Positions 3,960-39,112 of a stretch of 39,112 nucleotides of DNA are shown here, one piece after another. A program made the translations under genes and the position numbers. This DNA comes from a virus. Each line of letters begins with the position of its first letter. Within the stretch, counting starts at the first letter, position 1. The DNA is taken from positions 1-39,112 of the IMG/VR virus record IMGVR_UViG_3300028549_000989. One strand, written 5' to 3'. The notes beneath the pieces are model-generated. The model was not told the origin of the DNA and did not search any database. It saw only the letters and a list, made by a program, of their open reading frames with translations.

Positions 3960-3979
3960 CTTGTAAAGATATCTTTATA
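3960..3979. repeat. 20-mer CTTGTAAAGATATCTTTATA containing the 14-bp perfect palindrome TAAAGATATCTTTA; identical copy at 35210-35229
   Basis: Exact 20-nt identity between two non-coding blocks about 31 kb apart. Confidence 0.85.
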
Positions 3980-4085
3980 AGAATTATTTGTTTTGTATTA
4001 TTTAATAAGTTGTATTCATTTAAAGGGCGTTTAAAACGTTTTTAAATGAAAGGAATAGAAAGATATAGGTAAAGGTGCGTTTGAT

Positions 4086-4120
4086 GCTTGTAGGTATCTT
4101 AAAACGCTTTATATGATGTA
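4086..4120 (+). promoter_or_regulatory. CTTGTAG..TATAT box, + orientation, 26 nt upstream of ATG 4147
   Basis: GCTTGTAGGTATCTTAAAACGCTTTATATGATGTA. Near-identical inverted copy at 32943-32978. Related copies at 33026, 33115, 33196, 36541 and 24923. Confidence 0.45.
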
Positions 4121-4146
4121 TTATAAAACAAAGGAGGAAAACATTT

Positions 4147-4467
4147 ATGGATTTATTAGAAAGAGTATTTAAAGATGCTATTAAAAGTATCATTAAAGGA
4201 TATCAATTAAGTGATGAGGTAAGAGAGATACAATATATAGATAGTATGTTAAGCAGTAGTGTAGCAGATGCGTTTATTGAGTGTTCTTTTAAAGGTGTTT
4301 ATAAGACGCTTAATAAGAATGATAGAGATAGACTTGTAAAGAAACTTGGAATGACTTTTTATGATGCTATAATATACATAGACAGTGTAAGCAAAACAAC
4401 GGACATTTATGGAACTAATAAGGAAACATTGATGATAACATTTGAAACAAAGGAGGACAATGTATGA
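4147..4467 (+). CDS. Hypothetical protein immediately upstream of the RNAP gene
   Basis: AAGGAGGAAAACATTT RBS. The stop overlaps the RNAP start (ATGA). Confidence 0.6.
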   Translation: MDLLERVFKDAIKSIIKGYQLSDEVREIQYIDSMLSSSVADAFIECSFKGVYKTLNKNDRDRLVKKLGMTFYDAIIYIDSVSKTTDIYGTNKETLMITFETKEDNV

Positions 4468-6932
4468 AAGGAACAGTAGAAAAGCAACTTGAAATAGAAG
4501 AGCAGATAAAGGAGGAAGCAATTCAAAAATACTTATTAGATTTAAGTAATGCTATAAGCCAAAATAGATTCTCTCAGACCAATGAGGGTTTTTATTTATT
4601 GAAAGCAACGTTAAATAAATATGAAGAAGCATTAAATACTTTTTTAGATACATCGTATAGAGGACAACTTGAAAAGGATAAGAAGTTATTGTTTTTAATG
4701 TTTAATAAGACAGATGTATTAGCACTATCTGTATTGAATGAAGTGATAAACAGTATAGGTTCTGGTTCAAGCATAGCAGTAACATCATTAGCATTAAAGA
4801 TTGTGAGAGAGTTAAAGAAAGTAGCGATGCATAAGAATATAACGCACGATAATCCAAAGTTCATAAGTTATCTTGGGACGGAGTTTAAAAGAGCATCTAA
4901 GAGTAGAAAGGATGTATTAATAGCGAAGCATTTAAAGGACTTAAAAGACTTTGATGTATATAATAAAGATACAAAGATAGCAACACGTATAGGTGCTATG
5001 TTATTGGATGTATTAGAGAAGAGTGGAGCGAATATTATAGAGAAATTTACTATAATAGATGGTGTTAGAACTATATATCATTATAGATTAACACAAGAAG
5101 CTAAGGAGGGCTTATTAAAATTAGGTAGGAATGCGTTAGGAAATATTATGACGAATGCTAATAGGCTTCCTATGATTGTTCCTCCTGTTCCTTTTGATAA
5201 TGATACATTGAAAGGAGGCTATTATAAGTATCCTATACCATTAGTAAAGGCTATTCATAAGGAGCATAGAGCATTCATTAAAGGAAAGGATTACAGTAAG
5301 GTTATACCAGTTGTTAATAAACTACAAGCGGTGCCTTGGAAGTTTAATAGTAGAGTTATAGATGTTATGACAGATATCTTTGAAAATAATATGTTAGACC
5401 CACGAAATAGAAGCAAACTCCCTAAGTTATTTGGAGGGCTTCCAACAGCGTCAGTGTATAAGGTAGATGAATTAGTAAAGAAAGAAGAGTTTGGACGTTT
5501 AAAGAATGGCTGGGAACTTGGAAAGGAAGCATTTCATAGTTATACAAAGGCTAAGAATGAGATGTATATATTATTAGACAAAGAGATGGGAAATAGATTA
5601 GCATTGATGTTTGCACTTAGTGTATATACAAAGATGTGTGATTATGATGCTATATATTTTCCTCAACAGTTAGATTATAGAGGACGTGTATATCCACATC
5701 CTACATTTGTAAGCATCCAACAGCCATCTTATATAAAGGCTATGTTAGAGTTTGCTGATGGAGAAGTATTAGATGCAGTAGGTATGGATGGTTTAAAGAT
5801 ACATCTAAGTAATTGTTTTGGAAATGATAAGGCACCATTTGATGAACGTATAAAGTTTATTGAAGATAACTTAGAAGACATTTTAAAGACAGCACAAGAC
5901 CCAATAGAGCATATCTTTTATTGGACACAGGCAGATAGTCCTTTTGAATTCTTAGCAGGATGTTTTGCGTTAGATGATGCTTTAAAAGGGCTTCCTGTAA
6001 CGCTTCCTATACAGTTAGACTCTACGTGTAGTGGTATCCAGATGTATTCTGGATTATTATTAGATGAAGAGGGAGCGTTAGCAGTGAATGTTATAGGAGA
6101 TACAAGACAAGACATCTATGGAAAGGTAGCAGATAAAGTTAATTCTTATTTAGAACTTGGAGAGTATCCTCAAATGATTGAATTTAAAGACTCAGAAGGA
6201 GCAGAAAGAATTGTATCTACAATAATAGAAGCAGAGAGTATTAAAGGAAAGATTAAAAGGGCACACGTAAAGAAAAACGTTATGACACTGCCTTACAATG
6301 CTTCTTTTAGAGGCATGCAAGACCAAGTAAGGGCAGACTTTGAAGACATAAAGTTTAATGGAGATGCTTTTTGGAAAGGAGAGTTTTGGGTTGTTGTTAG
6401 ATTGTTAGCAACATTGAATAGTAAAGGTATCTATGAAATCGTTAAAGGTGCTGTAAAAGGTCAAGAGTATTTCAAAGACTGTGCTAAGGCTCTTAAAAGA
6501 CCTGCTACTTGGCTAACACCTATATATAATCTTCCTATTATGCAACCAGCATATAAGACAGATACACATATAGTGCAGACCTTAATAGGACGTCTAAGTG
6601 TTCAATACTCTACGGATGAATTAGATAGAAGAAGCCAAGTAAATGCAATAGCACCTAATATAATACATTCAATAGACTCTACGGTGCTTTATGGTACAGT
6701 AGATAAGTTTAAAGAAACACATATAGGAACTATACACGACTGCTTTTTATGTCATCCTAATTATTGGAGAGACATGCAGGAAGCATTTAAAGATGCTTAT
6801 ATAGAAATTATGGAAAGCAATCCAATGGAGTTCATAGGAAGACAATTAGACCCAGAAGGTCTTATAGAAATACCTATGATAAACACCTTAAATTTAAAAG
6901 ATGTGAAAAACTCTAAGTATATTATATCTTAA
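4464..6932 (+). CDS. Single-subunit DNA-dependent RNA polymerase (T7 gp1-like)
   Basis: 822 aa. LDYRGRVY, LDSTCSGIQMYS, KKNVMTLPYNAS, PNIIHSIDS and GTIHDCF align with T7 RNAP DWRGRVY, FDGSCSGIQHFS, RSVMTLAYGS, PNFVHSQDG and LIHDSF. Confidence 0.95.
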   Translation: MKGTVEKQLEIEEQIKEEAIQKYLLDLSNAISQNRFSQTNEGFYLLKATLNKYEEALNTFLDTSYRGQLEKDKKLLFLMFNKTDVLALSVLNEVINSIGSGSSIAVTSLALKIVRELKKVAMHKNITHDNPKFISYLGTEFKRASKSRKDVLIAKHLKDLKDFDVYNKDTKIATRIGAMLLDVLEKSGANIIEKFTIIDGVRTIYHYRLTQEAKEGLLKLGRNALGNIMTNANRLPMIVPPVPFDNDTLKGGYYKYPIPLVKAIHKEHRAFIKGKDYSKVIPVVNKLQAVPWKFNSRVIDVMTDIFENNMLDPRNRSKLPKLFGGLPTASVYKVDELVKKEEFGRLKNGWELGKEAFHSYTKAKNEMYILLDKEMGNRLALMFALSVYTKMCDYDAIYFPQQLDYRGRVYPHPTFVSIQQPSYIKAMLEFADGEVLDAVGMDGLKIHLSNCFGNDKAPFDERIKFIEDNLEDILKTAQDPIEHIFYWTQADSPFEFLAGCFALDDALKGLPVTLPIQLDSTCSGIQMYSGLLLDEEGALAVNVIGDTRQDIYGKVADKVNSYLELGEYPQMIEFKDSEGAERIVSTIIEAESIKGKIKRAHVKKNVMTLPYNASFRGMQDQVRADFEDIKFNGDAFWKGEFWVVVRLLATLNSKGIYEIVKGAVKGQEYFKDCAKALKRPATWLTPIYNLPIMQPAYKTDTHIVQTLIGRLSVQYSTDELDRRSQVNAIAPNIIHSIDSTVLYGTVDKFKETHIGTIHDCFLCHPNYWRDMQEAFKDAYIEIMESNPMEFIGRQLDPEGLIEIPMINTLNLKDVKNSKYIIS

Positions 6933-8396: not shown

Positions 8397-10061
8397 ATGT
8401 CAGAAGGTGGAGGAAGTTTTGTAAGGCACATAGAGTGCCATGCTTGTGGAAGTTCAGATGCAAATGCATTATATGATACAGGAGATACTTATTGTTTCTC
8501 TTGTCATAAATTAGTAAAAGGAGGAAAGATAGTGAGTAACGGAGGAGATATATTTGAAGATACAACAATTAAAAAGGTGTTTAATCCAGTAGAAGTTATG
8601 CATATGGAGAAGAATGTAAGAGGAATATCCTTAGATACATTTAAAAGATATGGTTATGGACGTGGAGAGAATGATTGTCATATAATAAATCACTATAACA
8701 AAAAGAATGAATTAATAGCTCAGAAGATGCGGTATAAAGCAAAAGAGTTTTCTTGGAAAGGGAATGCTAAAAGTGCTGTTCCATTTGGTTTAAATTTGTT
8801 TAGAAGTGGTGGTAAAAGAATAACAATAACAGAGGGTGAAATAGATTGTCTAAGTGTTGCGGAAGCATTGAAATGTCAATGGCCAGTAATAAGTATCAAT
8901 AACGGAGCACAAAGTGCTGTTAAAGATTTAAAAGAACATATAGATGTATTAAATACATATGATGAGATTGTATTATGGTTTGATAATGATGAACCAGGAC
9001 ATAAGGCTGCTAAGGAAGTTGCTGGATTGTTTCCATTGGGAAAGGTAAGTATTATAAATTGTGCTCCATATAAAGATGCTAATGAAGTTTTAAAAGATAA
9101 AGGTAAAGCAGGCATTATGCAATATTATTATGAAGCAAAGAAATACAGACCAGATGGTATCGTTAGTGGTGCTTCTTTGGATTTTGATGAAATTATTAAC
9201 TTAGACTCTACAAGAGGTTATTCAATGCCTTATCCACAACTTAATAGAAAGTTAAGAGGTCTTAGAAAAGGAGAACTTATAACATTCACCGCAGGAACAG
9301 GAATGGGTAAAACGACAGCCGTTAGAGAGATTGCTTTTGATTTGTTAAAGAATCAAGGATTGAAAATTGGATGGGTAGCATTAGAAGAAAACAATAAAAG
9401 GTCAGCGTTAGGTTTCATGAGTTTGTATCTTGACAAGCCTATTTATATGACAGAAGAAAGAGAACAAATGCCAACAGAACTTTTAAAAGAAGCATTTGAT
9501 GCTATAATAAATACAGATAATTTATATTTCTTTGACCATTTTGGGAGCCTTGATAGTAATAATTTAATAACTAAACTTAGATACTTAGCAGTAGCAGCAC
9601 AAGTTGATTTCATTTTCTTAGACCATATAAGCATAGTTGTAAGTGGTGGCGTTGAAGATAACAATGAAAGAATTGTTATAGATAATCTTATGACAGCATT
9701 AAGAAGTTTAGCAGAAGAAACTGGTGTAGGTATTGGAATTATATCACATCTTAAAAGACCAAGTAGTGATAAAGGCTTTGAAAATGGAGCAGAAGTAACA
9801 CTAAGTCATTTAAGAGGTTCAGGTGGTATAGCACAATTAAGTGATGCTGTTGTAGCATTAGAAAGAAATCAACAAGACAAAGAAGATAATACAGTAGGAC
9901 GTATAAGAATACTTAAAAATAGATATACAGGAGAGACAGGGTTGGCTGGTAATGTAAAATATTATACAGAAACAGGAAGATTATTAAATTATGATTTAGA
10001 AGACCAAGACGCTAATAATAATCCATTTAATAATTCAGCAGAACACGATGACGATTTTTAG
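8397..10061 (+). CDS. Bifunctional DNA primase-helicase (T7 gp4-like)
   Basis: Cys4 zinc motif CHACG..CFSCH; TOPRIM ITEGEIDCLS and WFDNDEPG; Walker A GTGMGKTT; Walker B FIFLDHIS; RGSGGIAQ. Acidic C-terminus ends HDDDF. Confidence 0.95.
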   Translation: MSEGGGSFVRHIECHACGSSDANALYDTGDTYCFSCHKLVKGGKIVSNGGDIFEDTTIKKVFNPVEVMHMEKNVRGISLDTFKRYGYGRGENDCHIINHYNKKNELIAQKMRYKAKEFSWKGNAKSAVPFGLNLFRSGGKRITITEGEIDCLSVAEALKCQWPVISINNGAQSAVKDLKEHIDVLNTYDEIVLWFDNDEPGHKAAKEVAGLFPLGKVSIINCAPYKDANEVLKDKGKAGIMQYYYEAKKYRPDGIVSGASLDFDEIINLDSTRGYSMPYPQLNRKLRGLRKGELITFTAGTGMGKTTAVREIAFDLLKNQGLKIGWVALEENNKRSALGFMSLYLDKPIYMTEEREQMPTELLKEAFDAIINTDNLYFFDHFGSLDSNNLITKLRYLAVAAQVDFIFLDHISIVVSGGVEDNNERIVIDNLMTALRSLAEETGVGIGIISHLKRPSSDKGFENGAEVTLSHLRGSGGIAQLSDAVVALERNQQDKEDNTVGRIRILKNRYTGETGLAGNVKYYTETGRLLNYDLEDQDANNNPFNNSAEHDDDF

Positions 10062-10072
10062 GAGGATATAAA

Positions 10073-11824
10073 ATGGAAATACCAAAACACACAAAACAAA
10101 TAATATTTGACATAGAAACAAATGGATTGTTACTAAATGTAACTAAGATGTGGGTAGGTGTTACATATTGTATTGAAGAGAAACTTAAAAGAGTATTCTA
10201 TGACCCAAAAGAACTTACAAAGTATCTTATAGAAGACACAGAAGCACTCCTTATAGGACACAATATCCGTGGCTATGATATACCTGCCTTAGAGAAACTA
10301 ACAGGGATACCTATAAAGAATCAAGTAATAGATACATTAACATTAGCAAAACTTGTATTCTATGATAAGAGCAAAGACTGGTCACATTCATTAGATGCTT
10401 ATGGACAACGTTTAAAGTTTCCAAAAGGACACCATAGTGATTGGACAAAGTATAGTACAGAGATGGAAACTTATTGTGTTCAAGACGTAAGAGTTACAAA
10501 GCGTCTTTATGAACTTCTATTAAAGGAATCTGAATGGCTTCCTTGGGAAGCATTAAATGTAGAGCAAGAAGTACAAAGAATCATTACAAAGCAATATATG
10601 AATGGTTGGACATTTGATATAAAGAATGCTAAGAAACTTCATATAGAACTTGTAAAGGAAAAAGAAGAAGCAGAGAAAGAATTATTTAAAGTATTCAAGC
10701 CAATGCTTATCCCAAAAGGAAAAATTAAAGTTCCTTCAAAGCCTTTTACAAGACTTAAAGTGACTACTGTTGGAGCACATCAACCAATAGAACTTACAGA
10801 GTTTAATCCAGGAAGCGGTAATCATATAGTGCTTTGGATTGATAGACTCTTTGGAGAACAAGATTGGAGACCAACTGAAAAGGGTGCTCCAAAGACAGAT
10901 GCAGAAACACTAATAGATATGTTTAGTGATTATGAATGGGCATCTCCATTGCTTCATTATATGGAAGTAAATAAACTATTAGGGCAACTAGCAGAGGGCG
11001 ATAAGGCTTGGCTTAAATTGGTCAATTATGACACATCTAAGATACATCATTCAGTGGATATCTTAGGAACCAATACAGGAAGAGCCACACATACTAATCC
11101 TAACTTAGCACAGGTGCCTGCTGCTAATAAAGCATATATGGGAGCAGAATGTAGAGCCTTATTTACTGTTCCAAAAGATAAAGTTCTGGTAGGATGTGAC
11201 CTTTCAGGAGTTGAATTAAGATGTTTAGCACATTATATGGGTAAGTATGATAATGGTGAATATGCTAAGATAATTCTTGAAGGTGATATCCATACTGCTA
11301 ATCAACAAGCAGCAGGATTAGACACCAGAAGTCAGGCAAAAACAATGGTATATTGTTATCTTTATGGTGGAGGAGATGCTAAATTAGGTGCTGTTGTAAA
11401 TGGTGCTAAAAAAGAAGGTAAAAAAATTAGAGATAAACTTGAAAGTAACTTACCAGCATTAGGTATTTTAATTAAAAAAGTTAAACAATCTTCTAAAAAA
11501 GGATATCTTGTAGGTATAACAGGAAGACGTTTAAAAATACGTAGCGAACACAGTGCTTTAAATGTATTATTACAATCATTAGGTGCTTATATAAGTAAAT
11601 ATTGGATGATAAAAGCACATCAACTATTTGAAGAAGAAAATATAAACTTAAAACAGTTATTATGGTGTCACGATGAATTGCAAGTAGAATGTGATAAAAA
11701 AGATGAAGAAAGAGTTAAGGTGATACTACAAGTATCAGCAACAATAGCATCAGAAGAAATAGGTATAAGAATGCGTATAGATGCTGAAAGTAAATCAGGG
11801 AAAACTTGGTATGATTGTCATTAA
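10073..11824 (+). CDS. Family-A DNA polymerase with 3'-5' exonuclease (T7 gp5-like, short form, 583 aa)
   Basis: Exo I FDIETNGL, Exo II GHNIRGYDIPAL, Exo III YCVQDV. Pol motif A DLSGVELRCLAH, motif B RSQAKTMVYCYLYGGG, motif C WCHDELQVE. Confidence 0.95.
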   Translation: MEIPKHTKQIIFDIETNGLLLNVTKMWVGVTYCIEEKLKRVFYDPKELTKYLIEDTEALLIGHNIRGYDIPALEKLTGIPIKNQVIDTLTLAKLVFYDKSKDWSHSLDAYGQRLKFPKGHHSDWTKYSTEMETYCVQDVRVTKRLYELLLKESEWLPWEALNVEQEVQRIITKQYMNGWTFDIKNAKKLHIELVKEKEEAEKELFKVFKPMLIPKGKIKVPSKPFTRLKVTTVGAHQPIELTEFNPGSGNHIVLWIDRLFGEQDWRPTEKGAPKTDAETLIDMFSDYEWASPLLHYMEVNKLLGQLAEGDKAWLKLVNYDTSKIHHSVDILGTNTGRATHTNPNLAQVPAANKAYMGAECRALFTVPKDKVLVGCDLSGVELRCLAHYMGKYDNGEYAKIILEGDIHTANQQAAGLDTRSQAKTMVYCYLYGGGDAKLGAVVNGAKKEGKKIRDKLESNLPALGILIKKVKQSSKKGYLVGITGRRLKIRSEHSALNVLLQSLGAYISKYWMIKAHQLFEEENINLKQLLWCHDELQVECDKKDEERVKVILQVSATIASEEIGIRMRIDAESKSGKTWYDCH

Positions 11825-12783: not shown

Positions 12784-13464
12784 ATGAGTAAAAGAATAGA
12801 GAAGTTGTTAATATCAACTTATAGAGACAAAGGAACAACATTTAGTGCTTCACAATTGACAAAGAATGATTATCAATTATGGGTTGAATATAATGCTCCA
12901 AAAGAAGAAAGAGAGACCTTAACGAGCTTTAAAAGCTACTTAGGAAGTGCTTTACATTTATCATTTGAACAACAAGAGTTTCCAGGTGTAGTTCAAGAAT
13001 TCACTTGGACAAAGAACTTTAATGGAGTATCTATTGGAGGAACGTGTGATAGATTAGATTATATTGAAGATAGAAACATTTGGCAGTTAGGTGATTATAA
13101 ATTAAAAGGTGATTACTCTTATAGAAAATTTGTTGAAGGAGATACAGAAAAAGAAGTACTTCAATTATCAATTTATAGATGGCTTTTTAAAGGTTTATTT
13201 AATATTGCTGATGATGCTATTATATTCTTATTTATGTCTGGACATACAAAAAGAAGTAAATATCCAGAGTATCAAGAATTTGATATAACACTACTTGAAG
13301 ATGATGTAATTGAAAGATACATAAAAGATAAGATAGATATTGTTACTTCACCAGAAATTCCAACAATGGATTGTGATACTAACTGGCAATGTGATTATTG
13401 TAATGTATGTAATTCTTGTCCTTATTTAAAAGAAAAAAGAGGCGGGTTTAGTGATGAAAGTTAG
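12784..13464 (+). CDS. PD-(D/E)XK nuclease of RecB/Cas4 type with C-terminal Cys cluster (occupies the T7 gene 6 position)
   Basis: CDRLDY ... GDYKLKG (D..DxK), QLSIY (QxxxY motif), C-terminal CDTNWQCDYCNVCNSC. Confidence 0.7.
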   Translation: MSKRIEKLLISTYRDKGTTFSASQLTKNDYQLWVEYNAPKEERETLTSFKSYLGSALHLSFEQQEFPGVVQEFTWTKNFNGVSIGGTCDRLDYIEDRNIWQLGDYKLKGDYSYRKFVEGDTEKEVLQLSIYRWLFKGLFNIADDAIIFLFMSGHTKRSKYPEYQEFDITLLEDDVIERYIKDKIDIVTSPEIPTMDCDTNWQCDYCNVCNSCPYLKEKRGGFSDES

Positions 13465-13498
13465 TTTATGCTATAAGTCACAACCTAAGATAATAAAT
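13464..13498 (+). promoter_or_regulatory. Putative phage-RNAP promoter, copy b, filling the 38-nt spacer after the nuclease gene
   Basis: 35 nt identical to 34940-34974. Starts on the last base of the upstream stop codon. Position is analogous to T7 phi6.5. Confidence 0.55.
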
Positions 13499-13706: not shown

Positions 13707-14045
13707 ATGACATCTGGATATATTGCTGGATACAATCCATTCACTGGTGCTGTAAATTATACAGACGATATAAGTCAAGCTTTGAAAGTATCTCCTGATA
13801 CTATGTCTCAAATGAATACACTACAAAGCCAAGCACAAAGTGAAGCTTTAAAGAAACTTCAATTGGACAAATTAAAGAAAGAAAAAGAGAAGGCTTTAAA
13901 AGCTATTTCTACAAATGGTGCTATTGGTACTTTTGATATAGAAGCACAAGATAAAATCTTACAAAGTATCCCTAAAAGATTTCTTGGAACAGGACAATAT
14001 GATGTGCCTTTAATGAATGCTAAGATAGCAGGAGGACAAATATAA
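13707..14045 (+). CDS. Hypothetical protein upstream of portal (possible minor virion protein)
   Basis: AAGGAGG RBS. The stop overlaps the portal start. Role inferred from position only. Confidence 0.5.
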   Translation: MTSGYIAGYNPFTGAVNYTDDISQALKVSPDTMSQMNTLQSQAQSEALKKLQLDKLKKEKEKALKAISTNGAIGTFDIEAQDKILQSIPKRFLGTGQYDVPLMNAKIAGGQI

Positions 14046-15565
14046 TGATACCTAATAAAGAAGACTTAAAAAGTAAATATGGAAATGCTTCCGATATATG
14101 GACTAAATTAGATAACGAAAAAGGAGCTGGTAAAACTGAAATGTGGCGTAGATGTGCTTCTTTAACGCTTCCTTATTTGTGTCCTCCAAGTGGGCATAAT
14201 GAGAATACAGAATTGTACTATCCATACAACAGTATAGGAACATATGCTACAAATACTTTATCAAGTAAGCTTTCAAGTGCTCTTATACCGACAACTGGAA
14301 AGTTTTTTAGATTGCTTCCATTTGATGAAAAGATTGAAGGATTAGCAAAAGAAGACTTACAAGAGCTTGAAAAGGAACTATCACAGATAGAGAACAATGT
14401 AATATCTTTAATAGGCATACAAGGATTAACAGCATCTTTAACAGAAGCTGTAAAGTTACTAATAGTAACAGGTAATGCTTTAATACATAAGATTAAAGGA
14501 AAATCTTTTAAAGTATATAATCCGTTAGATTATTGTGTTGAAAGAGACTATGCTGGAAATATTATGACAATAATTATAAAAGAAGTTATTGATGCAAGAA
14601 TATTAGGTGAAGAATTTATAGATAAAAATAGAAAAGAACAAGCAGAAGAAGATGAAATAGATATTTATACTTGTATATATAGGTTAGATAAGAATAACTA
14701 TATCTTATATCAAGAAGTAGATGATAAAATTATTGAAAAAACAATTAAAGCATACAAAACAGATTTAATGCCTTTCATAGCACTTAGATGGAATGCTTTA
14801 CATAATGAAGATTATGGACGTGGCTTAGTTGAACAACACTTAGGTGATTTAGTAAGCTTAGAAAATCTTCAAAGAATTATCATTGAAGGAGCAGCATCAT
14901 CTGCTAAAATTGTATATGGTCTTAAAAAAGGTGCTACATTAAAAGCAAAAGATTTAGAGAATGCAAGAAATGGAGATGTTGTATTAGGAGACTTTGGAGG
15001 AGCAAATCCAGATGTTACTGTATTACAATCTAATAAAAGTAACGATTTAATTGTACCATTACAACTTATACAAGACCTTAAACAGAATATTGGTAAAGCA
15101 TTTCTAATGTTTTCAAGTTCTGTTAGAGACAGTGAAAGAACAACAATGGCTGAGATAAGAGAAACAACTGCTGAATTAGATGCTGCATTTGGAGGAACAT
15201 TTAGTGTATTAGCTAATGAACTTCAAATACCATTAGTAAGATTGCTTTTAAATGAAATCAATCCAGAAGTATTAGAATTAACAACACCAAGTATTATAAC
15301 AACTGCTAACTCTGTATCAAGAGAAAAAGATATACAAAATCTTCAATTCTTCTTACAAAGCATAGCACAGTTTGGTCCTGACTTTATACAAGCAAATCTT
15401 AAAATAGATTCTTATTTGAAAGAATTAGCAACAGCAATAGGTATAGATGCTACAAAAATTGTAAAAACAGCACAAGAGAAACAAGTAGAGCAACAAGCTC
15501 TTATGGAACAACAAGCACAGTTACAGGCACAGGAAACAATGCCTACTGAGCAACAACCACAATAA
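14045..15565 (+). CDS. Portal (head-tail connector, T7 gp8-like)
   Basis: 506 aa with a Q-rich C-terminus. Size and position (before scaffold and capsid) match T7 gp8. No motif-level confirmation was possible by eye. Confidence 0.75.
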   Translation: MIPNKEDLKSKYGNASDIWTKLDNEKGAGKTEMWRRCASLTLPYLCPPSGHNENTELYYPYNSIGTYATNTLSSKLSSALIPTTGKFFRLLPFDEKIEGLAKEDLQELEKELSQIENNVISLIGIQGLTASLTEAVKLLIVTGNALIHKIKGKSFKVYNPLDYCVERDYAGNIMTIIIKEVIDARILGEEFIDKNRKEQAEEDEIDIYTCIYRLDKNNYILYQEVDDKIIEKTIKAYKTDLMPFIALRWNALHNEDYGRGLVEQHLGDLVSLENLQRIIIEGAASSAKIVYGLKKGATLKAKDLENARNGDVVLGDFGGANPDVTVLQSNKSNDLIVPLQLIQDLKQNIGKAFLMFSSSVRDSERTTMAEIRETTAELDAAFGGTFSVLANELQIPLVRLLLNEINPEVLELTTPSIITTANSVSREKDIQNLQFFLQSIAQFGPDFIQANLKIDSYLKELATAIGIDATKIVKTAQEKQVEQQALMEQQAQLQAQETMPTEQQPQ

Positions 15566-16613: not shown

Positions 16614-17549
16614 ATGGCATTCAATGTAACATTTCCAGGACAAAACGCAAACACTGGTGATACAAGAGCAAAATTCTTAACAATTTTCACAGGTGAAGTT
16701 ATGGCAGCATTCGCTTCAAGCAACATCGGTATGAATACTGTTAAAGTTAATACAATTTCAGGTGGTAAAACTGCACAATTCATCGTAACAGGTAAATTCA
16801 GTGATTCTGATGTATTATCACACACACCAGGTGCAGACGTAGTAACAACTGCTTTAAATACAAATGAAAAACAAATTACAATCACAGATAAATTCTACTT
16901 TGCTTCTTTCTTAGATAAATTAGAAGAAAAATTATCTCAATTCTCTATCAGAGGTTCTATTGCAAAAGAACACGGTGAAGTTCTTGCTAAGAAAATTGAT
17001 AAAGCAATCTTCAAAGGAATCTATGATTCAAGATTAGTAGCACCAGTTGGTGGTCAAACAGCATCTGTTGTTGTAACAAATACTGTTATCGCTTCTGCTA
17101 CTACAAATGAAGCAAAAGGTGACGCTATCGTTGAATCTATCTTTGCTGCACAAGCTTCTTTGGATGCTAATGATGTTCCTGCTATGGACAGAGTATTTGT
17201 TACTAATCCTACAAGAAAATATCAAATTGTTCAATCTCAAAAAGCAATCAATAGAGATTTCAATGGTGGAGATAATGGTTCTATATCTTCTGGTAACGTT
17301 ATGAATATCGCTGGTGTATCTATATTAGCATCTAATAACTTACCAACATTAGAATCTGATGGAACAACTGCTACTAACTTAGTAGGATTGTTATATACAC
17401 CAGAAGTTTATGGAGTTGCAAAAGCAATGGATATCACTTCTGAGTCTAACTATATACCAGAGAAATTAGGAGACTTATTAGTTTCTTACTATGCTCTTGG
17501 TATGGGAACACTTAATCCTGCTTGTTTAGCGGTTATCAAATCAGCTTAA
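16614..17549 (+). CDS. Major capsid protein (T7 gp10-like)
   Basis: N-terminal KFLTIFTGEVMAAF matches T7 gp10 LFLKVFGGEVLTAF. 311 aa; followed by a strong terminator. Confidence 0.9.
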   Translation: MAFNVTFPGQNANTGDTRAKFLTIFTGEVMAAFASSNIGMNTVKVNTISGGKTAQFIVTGKFSDSDVLSHTPGADVVTTALNTNEKQITITDKFYFASFLDKLEEKLSQFSIRGSIAKEHGEVLAKKIDKAIFKGIYDSRLVAPVGGQTASVVVTNTVIASATTNEAKGDAIVESIFAAQASLDANDVPAMDRVFVTNPTRKYQIVQSQKAINRDFNGGDNGSISSGNVMNIAGVSILASNNLPTLESDGTTATNLVGLLYTPEVYGVAKAMDITSESNYIPEKLGDLLVSYYALGMGTLNPACLAVIKSA

Positions 17550-32334: not shown

Positions 32335-32649
32335 ATGGCAAAAGATAAAAATAAGGATGTTATAATAGCAACACCAGAGGAAGTAGTAAATGCTCTTCCT
32401 GCTGTTACTTCAAAAGCATCTATAAATAAACTTAATAAGTTGCATGATATGCTTGCTAATTACTTTTTAGATGTATTAGAAACTGGTGAAGATACTATAT
32501 CAAGTGGTACAATAACAGCTATGAATACTTTCTTAAAAAATAATAATGTAGGTCTTGATATAATACCACAAGATCCATCATCTAAACAAGAAAGCATTAC
32601 ATATAGAATAGATAATATACTTAGACAAGAAATAGAATATAAAAAATAA
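32335..32649 (+). CDS. Terminase small subunit candidate (T7 gp18 position)
   Basis: 104 aa; assigned by synteny only. Confidence 0.4.
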   Translation: MAKDKNKDVIIATPEEVVNALPAVTSKASINKLNKLHDMLANYFLDVLETGEDTISSGTITAMNTFLKNNNVGLDIIPQDPSSKQESITYRIDNILRQEIEYKK

Positions 32650-32666: not shown

Positions 32667-32942
32667 ATGAAAACATTTGACATAACACATATGGTACAAT
32701 TAGATGCTGCTGTATCTTTAACACATACATTTACAGAAGAAGAAAAAGAAAAGTATGCTTATTTTACAATAAATACATATGATAGAGGCACTGTAACTGA
32801 TGGTGTTAATTATTTAGACGTATCTTTAAATGGTTTGGATGCAGCAGTTCCATTGATGGATAACTTATTATCAGTTACATTAAGTAATGAGATGAGTGAA
32901 AATCCTTATACACCTAAAATTGTATTTATGTATAAAGACTAA
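32667..32942 (+). CDS. Hypothetical protein
   Basis: AGAGG RBS; 91 aa. Confidence 0.5.
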   Translation: MKTFDITHMVQLDAAVSLTHTFTEEEKEKYAYFTINTYDRGTVTDGVNYLDVSLNGLDAAVPLMDNLLSVTLSNEMSENPYTPKIVFMYKD

Positions 32943-32978
32943 TACATCATATAAAGCATTTTAAGATACCTACAAGGC
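32943..32978 (-). promoter_or_regulatory. CTTGTAG..TATAT box, inverted orientation, abutting the stop codon of ORF 32667-32942
   Basis: The reverse complement GCCTTGTAGGTATCTTAAAATGCTTTATATGATGTA is nearly identical to 4086-4120. Confidence 0.45.
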
Positions 32979-33025
32979 ATTATCTTTATTTAGACAACAA
33001 TTTATATGTCTTTAAAAGAAAACGT

Positions 33026-33114: not shown

Positions 33115-33149
33115 ACATCGTATAAATCATTTTAAGATACATACAAGGC
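33115..33149 (-). promoter_or_regulatory. CTTGTAG..TATAT box, inverted orientation
   Basis: Reverse complement reads GCCTTGTATGTATCTTAAAATGATTTATACGATGT. Confidence 0.4.
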
Positions 33150-33195
33150 TTTAAAAGTTTTAAATGATATCTTTTATCAGATTTCTTTTAAAACG

Positions 33196-33236
33196 CCTTT
33201 AAGGTGCTTTAAAATGATTTATACAGCATATTATAG
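33196..33236 (+). promoter_or_regulatory. Diverged CTTGTAG..TATAT-type box directly upstream of the terL RBS
   Basis: CCTTTAAGGTGCTTTAAAATGATTTATACAGCATATTATAGG aligns with 4086-4130, at a similar distance from the box to the GGAGG RBS. Confidence 0.35.
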
Positions 33237-33249
33237 GAGGAAACATAAA

Positions 33250-34938
33250 ATGCCAATGACAGATGAAGAATTAAAGGAAATATTAACAGAATTTGGAGTG
33301 TATCTTAATTATGTGTATTCATTTATAAATACACCAAATGCTACACCTTTACAGATGCGTTTAGCAGATATCATACAAGAGGCTCCTTCAAGGCTTATCT
33401 TAGAAGCAGCACGTGGTGTTGGTAAATCTTGGATAACAGCTGTATATGCTTCTTGGAGATTATTAAGAGATAAAAATGAAAAAGTTCTTATAGTATCTGC
33501 TAATACAGAAAAAGCAAAAGAGATAGCAAGCTTTCTTAGAAGATTATTTAGTGTTGTCCCTATATTGAAACACTTAGAACCTTCAAAAGAAATAGGTGCA
33601 GGAACAGATAGAAGAGCTTTAAAATACAGAGATAGTGCTACCGCATTTGACGTTAAAGGATGTGACATAGCAATTGCTCCTTCTGTTGCTGTTGTTGGTA
33701 TCTCTGGACAACTTACAGGGAAACGTGCTACGTTAATAATAGCAGATGACGTTGAAGTTCCTAAAAACTCCTTTACAAGCGGTATGAGAGAGAAACTTAT
33801 AAATCAAGTTAAAGAATTTGAAGCTCTCCTAATACCAGATAAACCATCTACTGTATTATTCTTAGGAACACCACAGAGTATGGAAAGTATCTATAATAAA
33901 CTCCCTTATGAAACTATTGTGCTTCCTGCTATGGTTCCTGATAAACCAGAACTTTATAATGGTAAATTAGATCCTTGGATACTACTTCAAGGACCAGCAG
34001 GAACTCCAACAGATAAAATAAGGTTTCCTACACATATCCTTGAAGAAAGAAAAGCTGGTTATGGTCTTGCAGGATTTAGATTACAATATATGCTTGATAC
34101 AACACTATCAGATGCTAATAAGTTTCCTTTAAAGTTCAAAGATATGATTACTTATCCATTGGACAGAGAAGAAGCACCAGCAACGCTTACATATGTAGGT
34201 ACAAGAGACTATATCATTGAAGATATAAGTCATTCAGGATTCACTCATGATTTCTGTGTGAAGCCTTTAAGAGTATCTTCTGAATACTTTAAATATGATA
34301 AAAAGATTATTGCTATTGACCCTTCTGGTAGAGGCTCTGATGAAACTACATATGCTATCTTAGGTGTTCTAAATGGTAATGTATTCTTATTAGATGTTGG
34401 AGGAACACGTGACGGTTATTCAAGTGAAGCTTTATTATTCTTAGCACAAAAAGCTAAGGACTATAAAGTTCATGAATTGGTCATTGAAAAGAACTTTGGT
34501 GATGGTATGTTCTTAGAACTATTAAGACCAGTATTAAATGTAGTGTATCCTGTTAAAGCTTATGAAGTATCTTCAAAAGGTCAAAAAGAAGTACGTATTA
34601 TAGATATAATAGAACCATTGACATCTAATCATAAATTGATTATCAATCAAGACATCTTTATTAGAGAATATAATGAAGCACAACAAGACATTGGAAATAT
34701 GCCTTATACATTCACTTATCAATTCTCTCATATAACCAAAGAAAGAAAATGCTTAGAACACGATGATAGACTTGATGCGGTAGCTATTGGATGTGCTTAT
34801 TTACAAAACTTAGTAAGCATCTCAGCAGAAGAAGCATTAGAACAATACAAAGATGAAATGCTTCAAAAGTTCCTTGATGAAAAGATTTATGGTGCTTCTA
34901 ATAATACATCTAATAATAACTTTTTAAAGAAGTTTTGA
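33250..34938 (+). CDS. Terminase large subunit (T7 gp19-like)
   Basis: Walker A-like RGVGKS. Size (562 aa from ATG 33250) and end-of-late-region position fit T7 gp19. AGGAGGAAACATAAA RBS favours 33250 over track start 33214. Confidence 0.85.
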   Translation: MPMTDEELKEILTEFGVYLNYVYSFINTPNATPLQMRLADIIQEAPSRLILEAARGVGKSWITAVYASWRLLRDKNEKVLIVSANTEKAKEIASFLRRLFSVVPILKHLEPSKEIGAGTDRRALKYRDSATAFDVKGCDIAIAPSVAVVGISGQLTGKRATLIIADDVEVPKNSFTSGMREKLINQVKEFEALLIPDKPSTVLFLGTPQSMESIYNKLPYETIVLPAMVPDKPELYNGKLDPWILLQGPAGTPTDKIRFPTHILEERKAGYGLAGFRLQYMLDTTLSDANKFPLKFKDMITYPLDREEAPATLTYVGTRDYIIEDISHSGFTHDFCVKPLRVSSEYFKYDKKIIAIDPSGRGSDETTYAILGVLNGNVFLLDVGGTRDGYSSEALLFLAQKAKDYKVHELVIEKNFGDGMFLELLRPVLNVVYPVKAYEVSSKGQKEVRIIDIIEPLTSNHKLIINQDIFIREYNEAQQDIGNMPYTFTYQFSHITKERKCLEHDDRLDAVAIGCAYLQNLVSISAEEALEQYKDEMLQKFLDEKIYGASNNTSNNNFLKKF

Positions 34939-34939
34939 T

Positions 34940-34974
34940 GTTTATGCTATAAGTCACAACCTAAGATAATAAAT
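34940..34974 (+). promoter_or_regulatory. Putative phage-RNAP promoter, copy c, immediately after terL (T7 phiOR-like position)
   Basis: 35 nt identical to 13464-13498. Starts 2 nt after the terL stop. Confidence 0.55.
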
Positions 34975-35209
34975 AATATTGAGGGGGCATCCTAAGAGCT
35001 GACGGGGATAATACAAAGAAACATTGTATTGTCTTTTAAAGGCACTTAGAGCTCCTCAAATGTTACTTATTATGTTCCTTAAATGGAGCATAATTTGAAG
35101 CATTTGAGGAGGGGACACCCTAAGAAGCTTCAAAAGATAATTCTCATATGATTCTTTTAAAGAGCTTTATAAAGCTACCGCTTTACATAAATACAATAAT
35201 AATGTATAT

Positions 35210-35229
35210 CTTGTAAAGATATCTTTATA
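35210..35229. repeat. Second copy of the 20-mer CTTGTAAAGATATCTTTATA (palindrome TAAAGATATCTTTA)
   Basis: Identical to 3960-3979. Related AAAGATATCTTT at 35888-35899; half-sites at 35485 and 35592. Confidence 0.85.
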
Positions 35230-35240
35230 TGCTCATCTTT

Positions 35241-35299
35241 TATAGATACTATAATAGCTCATACTAAGTCCCGTCAGAGTACCTATTATAGTATCTATA
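35241..35299. repeat. 17-bp perfect inverted repeat TATAGATACTATAATAG / CTATTATAGTATCTATA with 25-nt loop
   Basis: Arms at 35241-35257 and 35283-35299, verified by reverse complement. Confidence 0.9.
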
Positions 35300-35961
35300 A
35301 AGGATACTTATAAAACTTCATTTAAAGAGTCTTTAAAGATGCTTCCTATATTCCTCCTGTTAGGAAGTATCTTTAAATGCTCACATTAAAGGATTAACCT
35401 TGTAATGATTTACTTTACATTATATTTCATATAAAGTAACAATCATATAAAGTACTTTACAAGTACTCATAAAACTCTTTAATAGATATCTTTTTGTGTA
35501 TCTCTTTAAGCTTATCTTTAAATGATGCATCATATAGATTTATATGTATCCTTATAAAGACGGCGTTTAAGGTTCCTTTAAGGTTCCTTGAAAGGATATC
35601 TTTATGTGTATTCTTATAAGGAACTTGAAAAAATCATCAGAAAAATTCTCGTGAGGAGACCCTATTCAGTTCTTGGGATAAATCCCCTAAGGGGCTTAAT
35701 AAAGTATTATATACAGATGTTAATATAGTATTTTATAGATATCTATCTAAGGTATCTTTATAAGTTAATCCTTAGTGGATTTTAAGGACGCTGGGAGAAA
35801 ATCTTTTAAGGATACATCTAATAGATTGTTATGTTAAGTTGTATATCATTTAAAGAATCTTATAAGAATGCATTGGAAGAATCTATTAAAGATATCTTTT
35901 AATAATCTATTGATGTATCTCATCTGATAGGGCAAACCTTAAAGGAACCTTAAACTGATAA

Positions 35962-36039
35962 AGCATTTAAAGCAACCTTAAAGGAACCTTAAAAAGAATA
36001 AGCATTTAAAGCAACCTTAAAGGAACCTTAAAAAGAATA
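35962..36039. repeat. Perfect 39-bp tandem duplication
   Basis: AGCATTTAAAGCAACCTTAAAGGAACCTTAAAAAGAATA at 35962-36000 and again at 36001-36039. Confidence 0.9.
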
Positions 36040-36222
36040 AGCCTTATATGTTATATTTTGTTATTACTTATTAGATTCTTTTAAAGATAACTTTTTCAAG
36101 AACCTTAAAGGAACCTTAAAAAGAATAAGCCTTATATGTTATATTTTGTTGTTCCTTATTAGATTCTTTTTATGTTATCTTATGTTATTTTTTATTAGAT
36201 TCTTTTTATGTTATATTTTGTT
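36013..36222. repeat. Nested direct repeats: a 50-nt unit at 36013-36062 and 36101-36150; TTATTAGATTCTTTTTATGTTAT at 36156 and 36192
   Basis: Exact identities read directly from the sequence. Confidence 0.85.
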
Positions 36223-36540
36223 AGATTCTATTAAAGATTATTAAGGGACTTTTTTAAAGTTCAACCCTTTCAAGAAACCTTAAAGGAAACTTAAACGTAT
36301 AACCTTAAAGGAACCTTTCAAGAAACCTTAAACGGATAATCTTTCAAGGAAACTTAAAGGAACCTTAAACGTATAACCTTAAAGGAATCTTAAAGGGATA
36401 ACCTTTCAATGTTTTATACAATAATAAGTATAATCTTTAAAAGATGTTTAAAAAGATTTATTAAAAGATAACATAAAATGACGCCTTAAAAGGCTTTTAA
36501 TTGTTTTATATAATAATTATAAGGTGTCTTTATTTGCGTG

Positions 36541-36566
36541 CGTTGTAGGTATCTTAAAATGCTTTT
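36541..36566 (+). promoter_or_regulatory. CTTGTAG..-type box, + orientation, at the start of the right-end cassette
   Basis: CGTTGTAGGTATCTTAAAATGCTTTT matches the core of 4086-4120. The upstream AAGGTG..GCGT flank is also similar. Confidence 0.4.
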
Positions 36567-36605
36567 AATAAGGTATCTTTTGAATGTATGGTATTGTTGT
36601 TTTGA

Positions 36606-36683
36606 TGCTATAAAAATATTTATCAAATAAGTTGATTAAATAATCCGCCTAAAATAACATTAAGTTTATTTTTGTGCTATAAT
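36606..36683 (+). promoter_or_regulatory. Two extended -10 promoter-like elements (TGCTATAAA 36606-36614; TGCTATAAT 36675-36683)
   Basis: TGnTATAAT pattern, rightward orientation, no ORF immediately downstream. Confidence 0.4.
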
Positions 36684-36997
36684 TACTACATTAAAAGACC
36701 ATCGTGTTTTTTAATCTTGGCTTTTGCCTTGCCTTTGGGGGTTTCTTATGTTTTCTTTATCTTCTCTTTTTGGTGCTTCTTCTGAGGCAGTTGTTGTTGT
36801 TAATGTTATAGACGGTTTTTTATGTGTTTTTTCAGGTGTTGTTTCTTCTTTTGAAGATGGTGTTTTTTCTTTTGTTGATGGGTCTTCTCTTGATTTAGAG
36901 GAGGCTATTGTTTCTTTTAATATATCTATTTCTCTTTATAAAAATAGAGAGAGTTATTCAATTGGCTTTGCTTCTTCTATTGTTAATTTATAATTTT

Positions 36998-37041
36998 CTT
37001 ATTTCCATAAAATAAGATTATTTCTTTTTTTATGCTATAAT
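36998..37041 (+). promoter_or_regulatory. Early-promoter-type module: palindrome CTTATTTCCATAAAATAAG (36998-37016), 19-nt spacer, TGCTATAAT (37033-37041)
   Basis: Same upstream palindrome and AATTTTCTT flank as the tandem early promoters at the genome ends. Confidence 0.5.
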
Positions 37042-37082
37042 ATGTTTAGTTTTTGATCCTTTAATTAAAAAGGATATTTTTT

Positions 37083-37126
37083 AAAAAATAGGGTGCTCTC
37101 CAAGCTGGGAGTATTCTATTTTTTTT
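37083..37126 (+). terminator. Terminator-like hairpin about 45-90 nt downstream of the 37036 -10 element
   Basis: AAAAAATAG (37083-91) pairs with CTATTTTTT (37116-24). Inner stem CTCC/GGAG. A T-run follows. A second GGGGGTATTCTATCTTTTTTTT motif lies at 37151-37172. Confidence 0.4.
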
Positions 37127-37221
37127 AAAAAATTGGCTGGGCTGCGTCCTGGGGGTATTCTATCTTTTTTTTAGCTGCCCTTTTATTATTATTATTATTC
37201 AACATTGCGGAGGTTAAAACA

Positions 37222-37584
37222 ATGGAATCTATAAAAAACACAAAAAAACAAAATGCGGTGCTTTTAGCGAACATTTTAGGAACATTAGAAAAAGGTGAGG
37301 CTTTAACTGCTTTTATTAAATATTCGGATGCGGGTGCCCGAGTGATGCTTTCAAAATCAGAGGCTACTTCTTTTACTGCTTTTGGTGGCGGTTATAACCG
37401 TGAGGGTTTTGCTTTGGCAGAATTGTTTAATGTTGCTTTAAAAGTTAAGGGTTTAAATGTTAAACTTGATGGTTTAGTATCTACTTATTCTTTAATGAAT
37501 CAATTTGAGGCTATAAGTGGTATCTCTTGCTCAATAAGCGATGTTAATAAATCTTTAAGTGCTATATCTTTTGAGGTGCTTTAA
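37222..37584 (+). CDS. Hypothetical protein with FGGGYN motif; paralogue of ORF 1881-2285
   Basis: GGAGG RBS. Motif similarity to the ORF 1881 product. Codon usage looks more T/G-rich than the core genes. Confidence 0.6.
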   Translation: MESIKNTKKQNAVLLANILGTLEKGEALTAFIKYSDAGARVMLSKSEATSFTAFGGGYNREGFALAELFNVALKVKGLNVKLDGLVSTYSLMNQFEAISGISCSISDVNKSLSAISFEVL

Positions 37585-38618: not shown

Positions 38619-38650
38619 AAAGACCACTTTTTAAATTAGTGGTTTTTATT
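38619..38650 (+). terminator. Intrinsic terminator closing the right-end cassette
   Basis: AAAGACCACT-TTTTAAATT-AGTGGTTTTT forms a 10-bp stem with one G-U and runs into a T tract. Confidence 0.7.
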
Positions 38651-38702: not shown

Positions 38703-38827
38703 ATAGTAATATAATATCAACAATTAAAAGTTATTAAACTTTTTAATTAATTTCTTTTGAAATTAACAAGAAAGAAATAACATTTAATTAAGATTTATGG
38801 TATAATATCAACAATTAAAAAGGTTAA
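38703..38827 (+). promoter_or_regulatory. Two further copies of the early promoter core (TATAAT 38710-38715; TGGTATAAT 38798-38806), each followed by ATCAACAATTAAAAG
   Basis: The conserved 21-nt core TATAATATCAACAATTAAAAG is repeated. Confidence 0.5.
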
Positions 38828-39006
38828 TATCTTTTTAAATAATTTTCTTCTTTCTTATTTCCAAAAATAAGATTAAGTTTGAAAGTTATGGTATAATATC
38901 AACAATTAAAAAGGTTAATATCTTTTTAAATAATTTTCTTCTTTCTTATTTCCAAAAATAAGATTAAGTTTGAAAGTTATAGTATAATATCAACAATTAA
39001 AAGATA
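38825..39006 (+). repeat. 91-bp tandem repeat (2 units) carrying palindrome plus -10 promoter modules; unit 2 starts exactly at the DTR boundary 38916
   Basis: Units begin at 38825 and 38916. They differ at one base in the TGG/TAG preceding TATAAT, then diverge after AATTAAAAG. Confidence 0.85.
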
Positions 39007-39112
39007 CAATAAAGTAATCTTTTAATAGCCCATTAGATGCAGAAAGAAAAGAAGCATCCAACGAACAACCTCCGCAACTTTAAAAGGGAGCATTTGGTGG
39101 GCTATTAAAAGA
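38916..39112. repeat. Right copy of the 197-bp direct terminal repeat
   Basis: Identical to 1-197. Confidence 0.75.

Follow-up and report, generated by a model that had tools for sequence, protein, structure and literature searches.

The IMG/VR virus record IMGVR_UViG_3300028549_000989, analyzed here over its full length of 39,112 nucleotides (hereafter, the window), holds the complete genome of a T7-like podophage with a GC content of 30% and every gene on the plus strand. In the non-coding gap that separates the gene for the large terminase subunit (TerL) from the early genes, this genome carries an array of short, mostly head-to-tail 11-bp units. In our reading, to which we assign a probability of about two in three, the array is the T7-type terminal-flank repeat region of the concatemer junction and the counterpart of the CCTAAAG arrays of T7, because the gap carries the junction landmarks of T7, T3, K1F and SP6, and arrays are found at the same position in those phages and in six relatives. 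The position, composition, orientation and non-coding nature of the array, as well as the recurrence of this architecture in the model phages and the relatives, are direct observations.

PHROGs and Pfam searches identified a single-subunit RNA polymerase (RNAP), a gp4-type primase-helicase, a DNA polymerase, a gp2.5-like single-stranded DNA-binding protein, portal and capsid proteins, and a terminase of the gp18/gp19 type, which together make up the gene set of a strictly lytic T7-like phage. TerL is the final large gene before the junction gap.

The repeat array and the junction gap

The sequence-only reading of the window had proposed an array of an 11-bp unit, and this array is real. With at most one mismatch allowed, GGAACCTTAAA has 18 matches in the window compared with 0.92 expected, a count reached in none of 100 shuffles (0/100), and 15 of the 18 fall in 35566-36394. 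The exact 9-mer AACCTTAAA is present in 14 copies in 35566-36383 and elsewhere occurs once, at 3660; the heptamer AACCTTA is present in 13 copies in 35935-36410, against 0.02 expected from the remaining genome. The 9-mer is exact in 14 of the 18 array copies, across three repeat contexts and in both orientations, and the intervening spacers differ. Exact conservation of the 9-mer between differing spacers points to constraint on the unit itself.

The positions of doublets and single units agree with those read initially to within one base. Perfect direct doublets start at 35935, 35974, 36013 and 36101, and doublets with one mismatch at 36276, 36350 (36351 in the sequence-only reading) and 36375; single units are located at 36301 and 36324, and one inverted doublet occupies 35566-35587. 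The 16 plus-strand units in 35935-36394 have basic spacings of 11 and 14 bp. The unit is largely confined to the genome-end region, with one exact 9-mer outside the gap. The units are embedded in higher-order repeats, delineated with Tandem Repeats Finder (TRF), of 39 bp (2.8 copies, 94% identity), 88 bp (1.9 copies, 94%) and 37 bp (3.4 copies, 80%), and are organized in two blocks separated by a T-rich spacer (Table 1).

Some of the doublets belong to a 32-bp composite unit, CTTTCAAG followed by a doublet and CG, with three matches in the window and none (0) expected; two copies are direct, and the third is inverted and sits 52 bp upstream of the predicted left end (35647) discussed below. 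The second half of the array had been described as punctuated by a short motif at least four times. Three of these occurrences are exact copies of CTTTCAAG (36267, 36315 and 36341), and the fourth is a CTTTCAAT variant; one inverted CTTTCAAG copy is found at 35587. Upstream of the inverted composite unit lies a zone of degenerate short repeats, where k-mer counts over 34985-35934 give 4 copies of AGATATCT against 0.09 expected and 5 copies of TATCTTTA against 0.36. Contig L017 (37909 bp), which comes from another sample, is 99.97% identical to the window across an overlap of 15.9 kb that includes the array. The presence of the same array sequence in both contigs indicates that it is not an assembly artifact.

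The regular 11-bp step had also suggested periodicity with the helical turn, which would place successive sites on one face of the DNA. This holds within each 11-bp doublet but not across the array. The start-to-start spacings of the units are 11, 28, 11, 28, 11, 77, 11, 164, 11, 14, 23, 26, 11, 14 and 11 bp, and the phase coherence of the 16 plus-strand units is R=0.30 at 10.5 bp (p=0.24) and R=0.41 at 11 bp (p=0.07); a period of about 12.5 bp, picked post hoc, fits best. A distance of 39 bp between doublets amounts to 3.5-3.7 turns, so that these doublets face different sides of the helix. Given that the phase coherence is not significant, global helical phasing was rejected.

The array is located in a 1.8-kb gap (34939-36723) between TerL and the early genes, which contains no open reading frame (ORF) longer than 46 amino acids and is the only large non-coding gap of the genome besides the 3102-4146 region. 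A scan of the gap for tRNA genes was negative, and the only Rfam match in it was a hairpin hit of 21 bits attributable to chance; the initial description of a non-coding array of short sites, of the type recognized by proteins, holds up. On one side of the array lie TerL and a promoter-like element downstream of it, and on the other are the first early promoter-like sites, which precede the first small early ORF (36748-36993).

Transcription from the element that follows TerL would head into the junction and the array. This 27-nt element, TTTATGCTATAAGTCNCAACCTAAGAT, occurs at 3683-3709, 13465-13491 and 34941-34967 of the window; the copy at 13465 begins right after the stop codon of the ORF at 12784-13464, and the TGCTATAA core is also found after TerL in the relatives L024 (~3478), L022 (~9290) and L063 (~10805). 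The element could be a promoter of the phage RNAP or an extended -10 promoter of the host. An isolated GAAACCTTAAA at 3658-3668, 14 nt upstream of the promoter-like element at 3683, is present as noted in the sequence-only reading; we rejected it as a promoter-associated site, as about one stray 9-mer is expected by chance on a rough estimate from base composition, and no unit was seen just upstream of the promoter-like copy at 34941. Downstream of the 34941 element, the stretch 35050-35111 can fold into a hairpin (CTCCTCAAATG … CATTTGAGGAG) and contains the motif GGGG-N-CCTAAGA-GCT twice in direct orientation. This stretch could be a processing or termination site; the one Rfam match to it, a miRNA hairpin, is a chance match.

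Further into the gap, the window displays a T7-like left-end signature of the form TCTC…CCCC-TAAGGGG. The regular expression for this signature has a single match in the whole window, with both strands scanned, and on the plus strand of T7 it matches solely at the two starts of the terminal repeat. Because this expression was composed after the window had been seen, a profile was also built from ten other phages, with the window left out. The top match of this profile in 78 kb (both strands) is 35675-35709 on the plus strand, a weak match by itself (E=0.75) that falls inside the expected 1.8-kb gap. The second landmark is the heptamer ATCTGAT, the start of which precedes the first unit, at 35935, by 13 bp. 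There are ten ATCTGWT sites on the plus strand in 39 kb, so that the chance of finding one within 25 nt of the start of the array is about 0.6%. The strict form ATCTGTT is found in the whole window 3 times on the plus (transcribed-sense) strand and 17 times on the minus strand. We made no use of this bias as a sign of pause-site avoidance: the A/T skew predicts a ratio of about 2.4:1 by a rough estimate, and the excess is suggestive but not significant.

By analogy with T7, a position near 35647 is the probable start of the mature genome, and the terminal repeat, collapsed to one copy in the assembly, would measure about 275 bp and end at 35921. On this predicted map, the left end would have the direct arrays in 35935-36408 as its first unique DNA, preceded by the repeat and followed by the early promoters, and the inverted composite unit at 35564-35595 would be the last repeat before the terminal repeat of the right end.

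The window does carry an exact 197-bp duplication at its ends, which we considered as a true terminal repeat and judged unlikely to be one. It begins partway through a 91-bp tandem of TGGTATAAT promoters, stops inside the arm of a long hairpin and lacks end landmarks of the T7 type (TCTC, ATCTGTT), and contig L017 reads through the same stretch with one copy. On these grounds, the ends of the window are likely not genome ends, and the duplication is probably an assembly overlap rather than a physical terminal repeat. It is known that, when T7-like phages are assembled from short reads, the terminal repeat collapses and the contig is opened at an arbitrary point (PMC10438801).

Table 1. Junction features and principal genes of the phage genome, in window coordinates
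Feature	Position	Strand	Basis or remark
RNA polymerase	4464-6932	+	
Primase-helicase	8397-10061	+	
DNA polymerase	10073-11824	+	
Portal	14045-15565	+	
Capsid	16614-17549	+	
Small terminase subunit, T7 gp18 family	32335-32649	+	Pfam PF11123 DNA_Packaging_2, 33.8 bits against a cut-off of 27.5; PHROG 891
Large terminase subunit (TerL), T7 gp19 type	33214-34938	+	PHROG 38, E=1.4e-99; PF22530 Terminase-T7_RNaseH-like
Promoter-like element, 27 nt, immediately following the TerL stop codon, placed like phiOR in T7	34941-34967	+	Three exact or near-exact copies (3683, 13465, 34941) vs 0 expected
Degenerate short-repeat zone (AGATATCT, TATCTTTA and CTTTAAAG types)	35135-35563	.	k-mer enrichment; predicted right-end flank
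Composite unit, inverted copy (CCTTTCAAG + doublet + CG)	35564-35595	-	0 mismatches; inverted repeat I7, 94% complementary over 32 nt
T7-like left-end signature, TCTCGTGAGG (35647) … CCCCTAAGGGGC (35684)	35647-35695	+	Signature regular expression and profile; predicted first mature base
Predicted direct terminal repeat, 275 bp, single copy in the assembly	35647-35921	+	Analogy with T7, T3 and K1F
ATCTGAT heptamer, preceded by C (35921)	35922-35928	+	Similar to ATCTGTT, the class II pause site of T7; first unit 6 nt downstream
Array 1: four perfect doublets AACCTTAAAGGAACCTTAAA	35935-36120	+	Within the 39-bp (x2.8) and 88-bp (x1.9) repeats
T-rich spacer with 36-bp repeats (TATGTTATATTTTGTTATT…AGATTCTTTT)	36121-36259	+	TRF period 36, 2.5-2.8 copies, 81-86% matches; repeat family D3
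Array 2: 37-bp higher-order repeat with three one-mismatch doublets, two singles and CTTTCAAG punctuation	36260-36408	+	
Composite unit, direct copies	36266-36297, 36340-36371	+	
Host-type promoter-like sites after the array (TTAAAA-17-TATAAT; TG-extended TATAAT at 36654-36683)	36486-36683	+	Consensus matches only
Exact 197-bp duplicate of window 1-197	38916-39112	+	

Junction architecture in model phages and relatives

The features of the model phages were taken directly from their sequence records. The genomes of T7, T3, K1F and SP6 all open with TCTC, followed about 25 nt on by a CCCC(C)ATAGG palindrome, and in all four ATCTGT(T/A) is located at the repeat boundary. Counted from base 1, the heptamer is offset by 160 in T7, 231 in T3 and 179 in K1F, which are the known lengths of the terminal repeats of these phages (PMC4925675). 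The array follows the heptamer within about 60 bp in each phage: at about 13 bp in both T7 and T3, at 5 bp in K1F and at about 45 bp in SP6. In SP6, the heptamer occupies positions 174-180, and the terminal repeat is 174 bp long. The array units are CCTAAAG and CTTAAAG in T3, CCATAAGTC and CCTACAGTC in K1F, and CCTTAGT in SP6. The heptamer ATCTGTT forms the conserved core of the signal at the concatemer junction that acts as a class II pause site and terminator for T7 RNAP (bioRxiv 10.64898/2026.02.12.705533).

The order of landmarks, with the TCTC…CCCC-palindrome followed by the repeat body, ATCTG(T/A/C)T and the array, is shared by T7, T3, K1F, SP6, the relatives L064, L022 and L019 (where the heptamer reads ATCTACT) and the window. 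Pausing at the junction heptamer is said to be needed for concatemer processing, according to Lyakhov et al. (1997) and to Zhang and Studier. Flank repeats as a class have been visible in the T7 sequence since 1983, and Dunn and Studier reportedly named those of T7 SRL and SRR in that year.

The closest comparison is with T7 itself, in which 16 of the 22 plus-strand copies of CCTAAAG fall in the terminal 1.2 kb. The T7 array, in one orientation, has units at 175, 188, 213, 226, 239 … 332, with a spacing of 13 bp, and begins 14 bp past the 160-bp repeat; weaker CCTAAAG copies precede the right-hand repeat, and phiOR is located at 39229, after gene 19. T7 and the window phage share a non-coding array between gene 19 with phiOR and the early promoters of a T7-like genome, direct units of 7-11 bp in one orientation with a mean spacing of 12.5-13 bp, an ATCTG-T heptamer that precedes the array by 13-14 bp and marks the boundary of the repeat (a predicted boundary in the window), and strong confinement of the unit to the genome ends. 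The units themselves are similar, CCTAAAG in T7 and CCTTAAAG in the window.

Unlike in T7, the window units form 11-bp doublets within higher-order repeats of 37-88 bp, and the array, at about 470 bp compared with about 170 bp, is split into two blocks by the T-rich spacer. The far flank of the window consists of a single inverted composite unit, whereas the right-end repeats of T7 are direct, and the terminal repeat of the window is predicted by analogy. With T3, K1F and SP6, the window phage shares the order of the landmarks, which in those phages are the TCTC…CCCCATAGG start, ATCTGT(T/A) at the end of the repeat and the ensuing array of phage-specific units; the unit sequences are different, and those three are enterobacterial phages with a GC content of about 50%, as opposed to 30%.

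Among the relatives, a gap of 1.1-1.9 kb follows TerL in every one with a contig that spans the region. Arrays located as in the window, though not always built of its unit, were found in L024, L062, L022, L019, L064, L020 and Roseobacter phage CRP-143. In the low-GC relatives L019, L020, L022, L062 and L064, every plus-strand match of the signature expression falls 129-719 bp after TerL; some loci also have minus-strand matches elsewhere. In L064, L022 and L019, the heptamer (ATCTGTT, ATCTGCT or ATCTACT) lies 182-432 bp from the start of TCTC, offsets that correspond to typical terminal-repeat lengths, and is followed within about 30 bp by an array of CCCTTTC or CCCTTTG. L020, L062 and CRP-143 have the TCTC…CCCC signature and lack the heptamer; in CRP-143, the signature is accompanied by CCCTTTG units. 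The nearer relatives share gap units of the CCTT-N-AAG type, and the more distant ones use CCCTTTC or CCCTTTG. In L024, the density of CCTT-N-AA is 13.6 per kb in the gap compared with 2.8 per kb elsewhere, and L062 has a AACCTTAAATGAATCTTAAAGG doublet in the gap.

These relatives are distant. The closest TerL of an isolated phage, that of CRP-143, is 54% identical to the TerL of the window, and the best identity among the metagenomic relatives is 60%, so that the architecture is shared at TerL identities of 60% or less among the sampled relatives. The IMG/VR relatives are merely 36-42% identical in TerL, and these high-GC loci are uninformative for the end signature. Against all phages in the isolate and viral-contig collections searched, TerL identity is 36-54%, and no isolate-phage DNA similar to 35300-37300 was matched; judged by its sequence, the window phage is new.

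Three collections, of viral, metagenome and genome contigs, were searched with the doublet 20-mer; the contig of the window itself was not among them. No other array-bearing contig was returned from the three collections. The viral contigs gave one single-copy match, and the matches in the metagenome (19 stretches) and genome contigs (12) are all single except in L033. The doublet in L032 lies inside a coding region and was taken as unrelated. L033 (Ga0256832_1004454), a GC-rich bacterial metagenome contig, contains at 9007-9060 five intergenic head-to-tail copies of the same 11-bp unit (GAACCTTAAAG/A); this repeat has no phage context and is probably a coincidence. A second look-up with the first early ORF brought up no new contig variants. 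Particular to the window phage are the unit sequence, the doublets, the layout in two blocks and the mirrored composite unit.

Several further features of the junction region were observed in the relatives. Assemblies of this clade often stop 30-1350 bp after TerL (contig ends of L063, L062, L064, L020 and L018; the contig-end sites of breaking assemblies include L063 11045-11175), in one case within a microsatellite, (TATACT)n, and in another within a CCCTTTGA array. These frequent stops mark the junction region as a systematic assembly breakpoint. A palindromic, operator-like element, (T)GATAATSATTATCA, is present in two or three junction copies in L022 (9850-10062), L024 (4499-4757), L062 (~12602 and ~12668) and L066, which is CRP-143 (~565-700). 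In the gap of the window, by comparison, the element is not repeated, and the single match, on the minus strand at ~35711, is loose. L024, the nearest long relative, which has been binned into an 'Ignisphaera' metagenome-assembled genome, encodes 11 tRNA genes before TerL (646-1543) and a tRNA-Asn in the junction gap (3951-4026); no tRNA genes were found in the window phage.

Proposed role of the array and competing explanations

Of the three roles offered for the array in the sequence-only reading, those of iterons, a centromere and a terminase recognition site, the last fits the context best. Following the T7 model, transcription from the 34941 element in concatemers would enter the junction, and the phage RNAP would pause at ATCTGAT, at the end of the repeat, as T7 RNAP does at its junction pause site. 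An oligomeric DNA-binding part of the maturation machinery, for which the gp18-type small terminase is the first and most obvious candidate, would dock at the short sites flanking the repeat, and the large terminase would then cut at both repeat boundaries, upon which one genome would be packaged. Here, we infer the exact ends, the pause and the binding partner, and the specific docking mechanism is accordingly tentative, about half as probable as the assignment of the array to the terminal flank.

Similar arrangements, with several short repeats next to the terminase cut site (predicted in the present case), are the R sites of lambda cosB and the pacL and pacR boxes of SPP1, which are read by oligomeric small terminases. 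Unlike in those systems, maturation of the T7 type also requires the phage RNAP and duplicates the terminal repeat, and the terminase families are unrelated.

A bolder proposal, which we regard as possible but doubtful, is that the flank units on both sides of the repeat, here the mirrored 32-bp composite unit before it and the direct doublets after it, are the true recognition code of T7-type maturation and jointly set both cut sites. An oligomeric gp18-type small terminase or another end-binding factor may read a loose CCTT-N-AAG-like core, which may persist from the CCTAAAG of T7 to the vent-type phage clade (CCTTAAAGG, CCTTCAAGG). Such a code, if true, would give the T7 flank repeats a function and provide a sequence rule to predict the ends of uncultured T7-like genomes.

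Several points weigh against the assignment to the terminal flank. The profile match to the end signature, taken alone, has just E=0.75, and the regular expression was composed with the window already seen. ATCTGAT departs from the strict ATCTGTT, and polymerase pausing at this site is only predicted. Were the 197-bp end duplication a genuine terminal repeat, the array would have an internal position, at a distance of 2.5 kb from the right end. The doublets, the inverted composite unit and the AT-rich spacer are foreign to the T7 array. Furthermore, we know of no DNA-binding specificity of gp18-type small terminases, and, to our knowledge, the role of the T7 flank arrays has never been established since the genome sequence of 1983, so that the likeness to T7 fixes the context, not the mechanism.

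The most serious competitor, albeit an unlikely one, is an operator or roadblock that acts early in infection, where a host nucleoid protein, a virion protein or an early phage protein binds the first DNA to enter and controls the early promoters, protects the entering end or halts entry until the host RNA polymerase engages. The location is suitable, given that the arrays lie about 290-760 bp from the predicted left end and just upstream of the promoter-like sites at 36486-36683, much as those of T7 and T3 lie between the terminal repeat and promoters A1-A3. According to Molineux, the left end of T7 reportedly enters first, and only about 850 bp does so without transcription. Nevertheless, no DNA-binding domain is recognizable among the early ORFs, and the inverted composite unit across the predicted repeat would have no obvious role. 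The units also differ between relatives that probably share host types, so a phage-encoded partner fits better than a host protein.

Changing units are compatible as well with an array that has no sequence-specific function and is a by-product of slippage and unequal recombination in a recombination-prone junction. The 80-94% identity within the 39-, 88-, 37- and 36-bp higher-order repeats bespeaks recent duplication, and assemblies often break in the gap. We nonetheless consider this origin quite improbable: T7-like phages that are very distant from each other, with 60% TerL identity or less among the sampled relatives, have the same architecture in the same place, and the 9-mer is exact in 14 copies, in three repeat contexts and both orientations, between spacers that differ. 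Recurrence of arrays in such distant phages while the unit changes is the pattern expected of a site that co-evolves with a phage protein.

Replication-origin iterons, where an initiator would bind the two direct-repeat clusters and melt the AT-rich spacer at 36121-36259, are very unlikely. Here, two direct-repeat clusters do flank a T-rich, AT-rich spacer of 140 bp, as direct repeats adjoin an AT-rich stretch in the iterons of P1, pSC101 and the lambda origin; many ORFs have no assigned function; and T7 has secondary origins near both ends (phiOL, phiOR). Unlike those iterons, however, the 11-bp units are shorter than the usual 17-22 bp and keep no register across the array. As the sequence-only reading had it, no Rep- or ParB-like gene is recognizable: Pfam detected none in 20 small ORFs, nor a DnaA-like or other initiator domain. 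The replisome is of the T7 type (gp4-like primase-helicase, DNA polymerase and gp2.5-like single-stranded DNA-binding protein), which in T7 initiates from RNAP transcripts rather than at iteron-bound initiators, and T7 has its primary origin at another site, downstream of gene 1. Arrays of this kind also adjoin the terminal repeat in T7, T3, K1F and SP6.

A centromere of the plasmid type (parC/parS-like), whose repeats an adaptor would bind to segregate a plasmid-prophage form, is extremely improbable. The 11-bp unit in two clusters does resemble the parC site of plasmid R1, where two groups of five 11-bp repeats make ten in all. In the window, by contrast, at most two units are contiguous, not five, the gene set is strictly lytic, and Pfam and PHROGs detected no ParA/ParM, ParB/ParR, integrase or repressor among the scanned proteins.

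With the array placed at the terminal flank, the predicted genome start shifts from position 1 of the window to about 35647. For T7-like genomes assembled from metagenomes, which assemblers otherwise permute circularly, the same order of landmarks allows the terminal repeat and the physical ends to be predicted. This is one more case of a known architecture, in an uncultured phage, and its direct impact is modest; the clean 11-bp doublets and the mirrored composite unit offer a clear test sequence for the role of such arrays.

Other repeats and hairpins of the genome

The second large non-coding gap (3102-4146), upstream of the RNAP operon, holds the promoter-like copy at 3683, a perfect 12-bp tandem of TGTAAAGACTCA in 5.4 copies (3846-3910) and 2.1 copies of the 12-bp TATGTGAATAAC (3622-3646). 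This region could be regulatory or a replication origin. An element of about 37 nt, TTGTAGGTATCTTAAAAYGCTTT…, is found at 4087-4123 and 36539-36576 on the plus strand and at 32940-32979 on the minus strand, and the copies at 4087 and 32940 are 97% complementary; related arms at 33120-33152 and 33192-33224 form a long hairpin just before the start of TerL. A promoter, a terminator and a processing site are candidate roles for this element.

At the ends of the window, a hairpin resembling an intrinsic terminator (~38620-38650) precedes four to five copies of the 91-bp repeat (38707-39006 and 65-91), each with a TGGTATAAT or TAGTATAAT extended -10 box. These repeats are followed by a hairpin with 26-nt arms (100-125 and 175-200) and then by an ORF at 289, a layout that resembles the tandem promoters A1-A3 of T7 followed by the R0.3 RNase III site.

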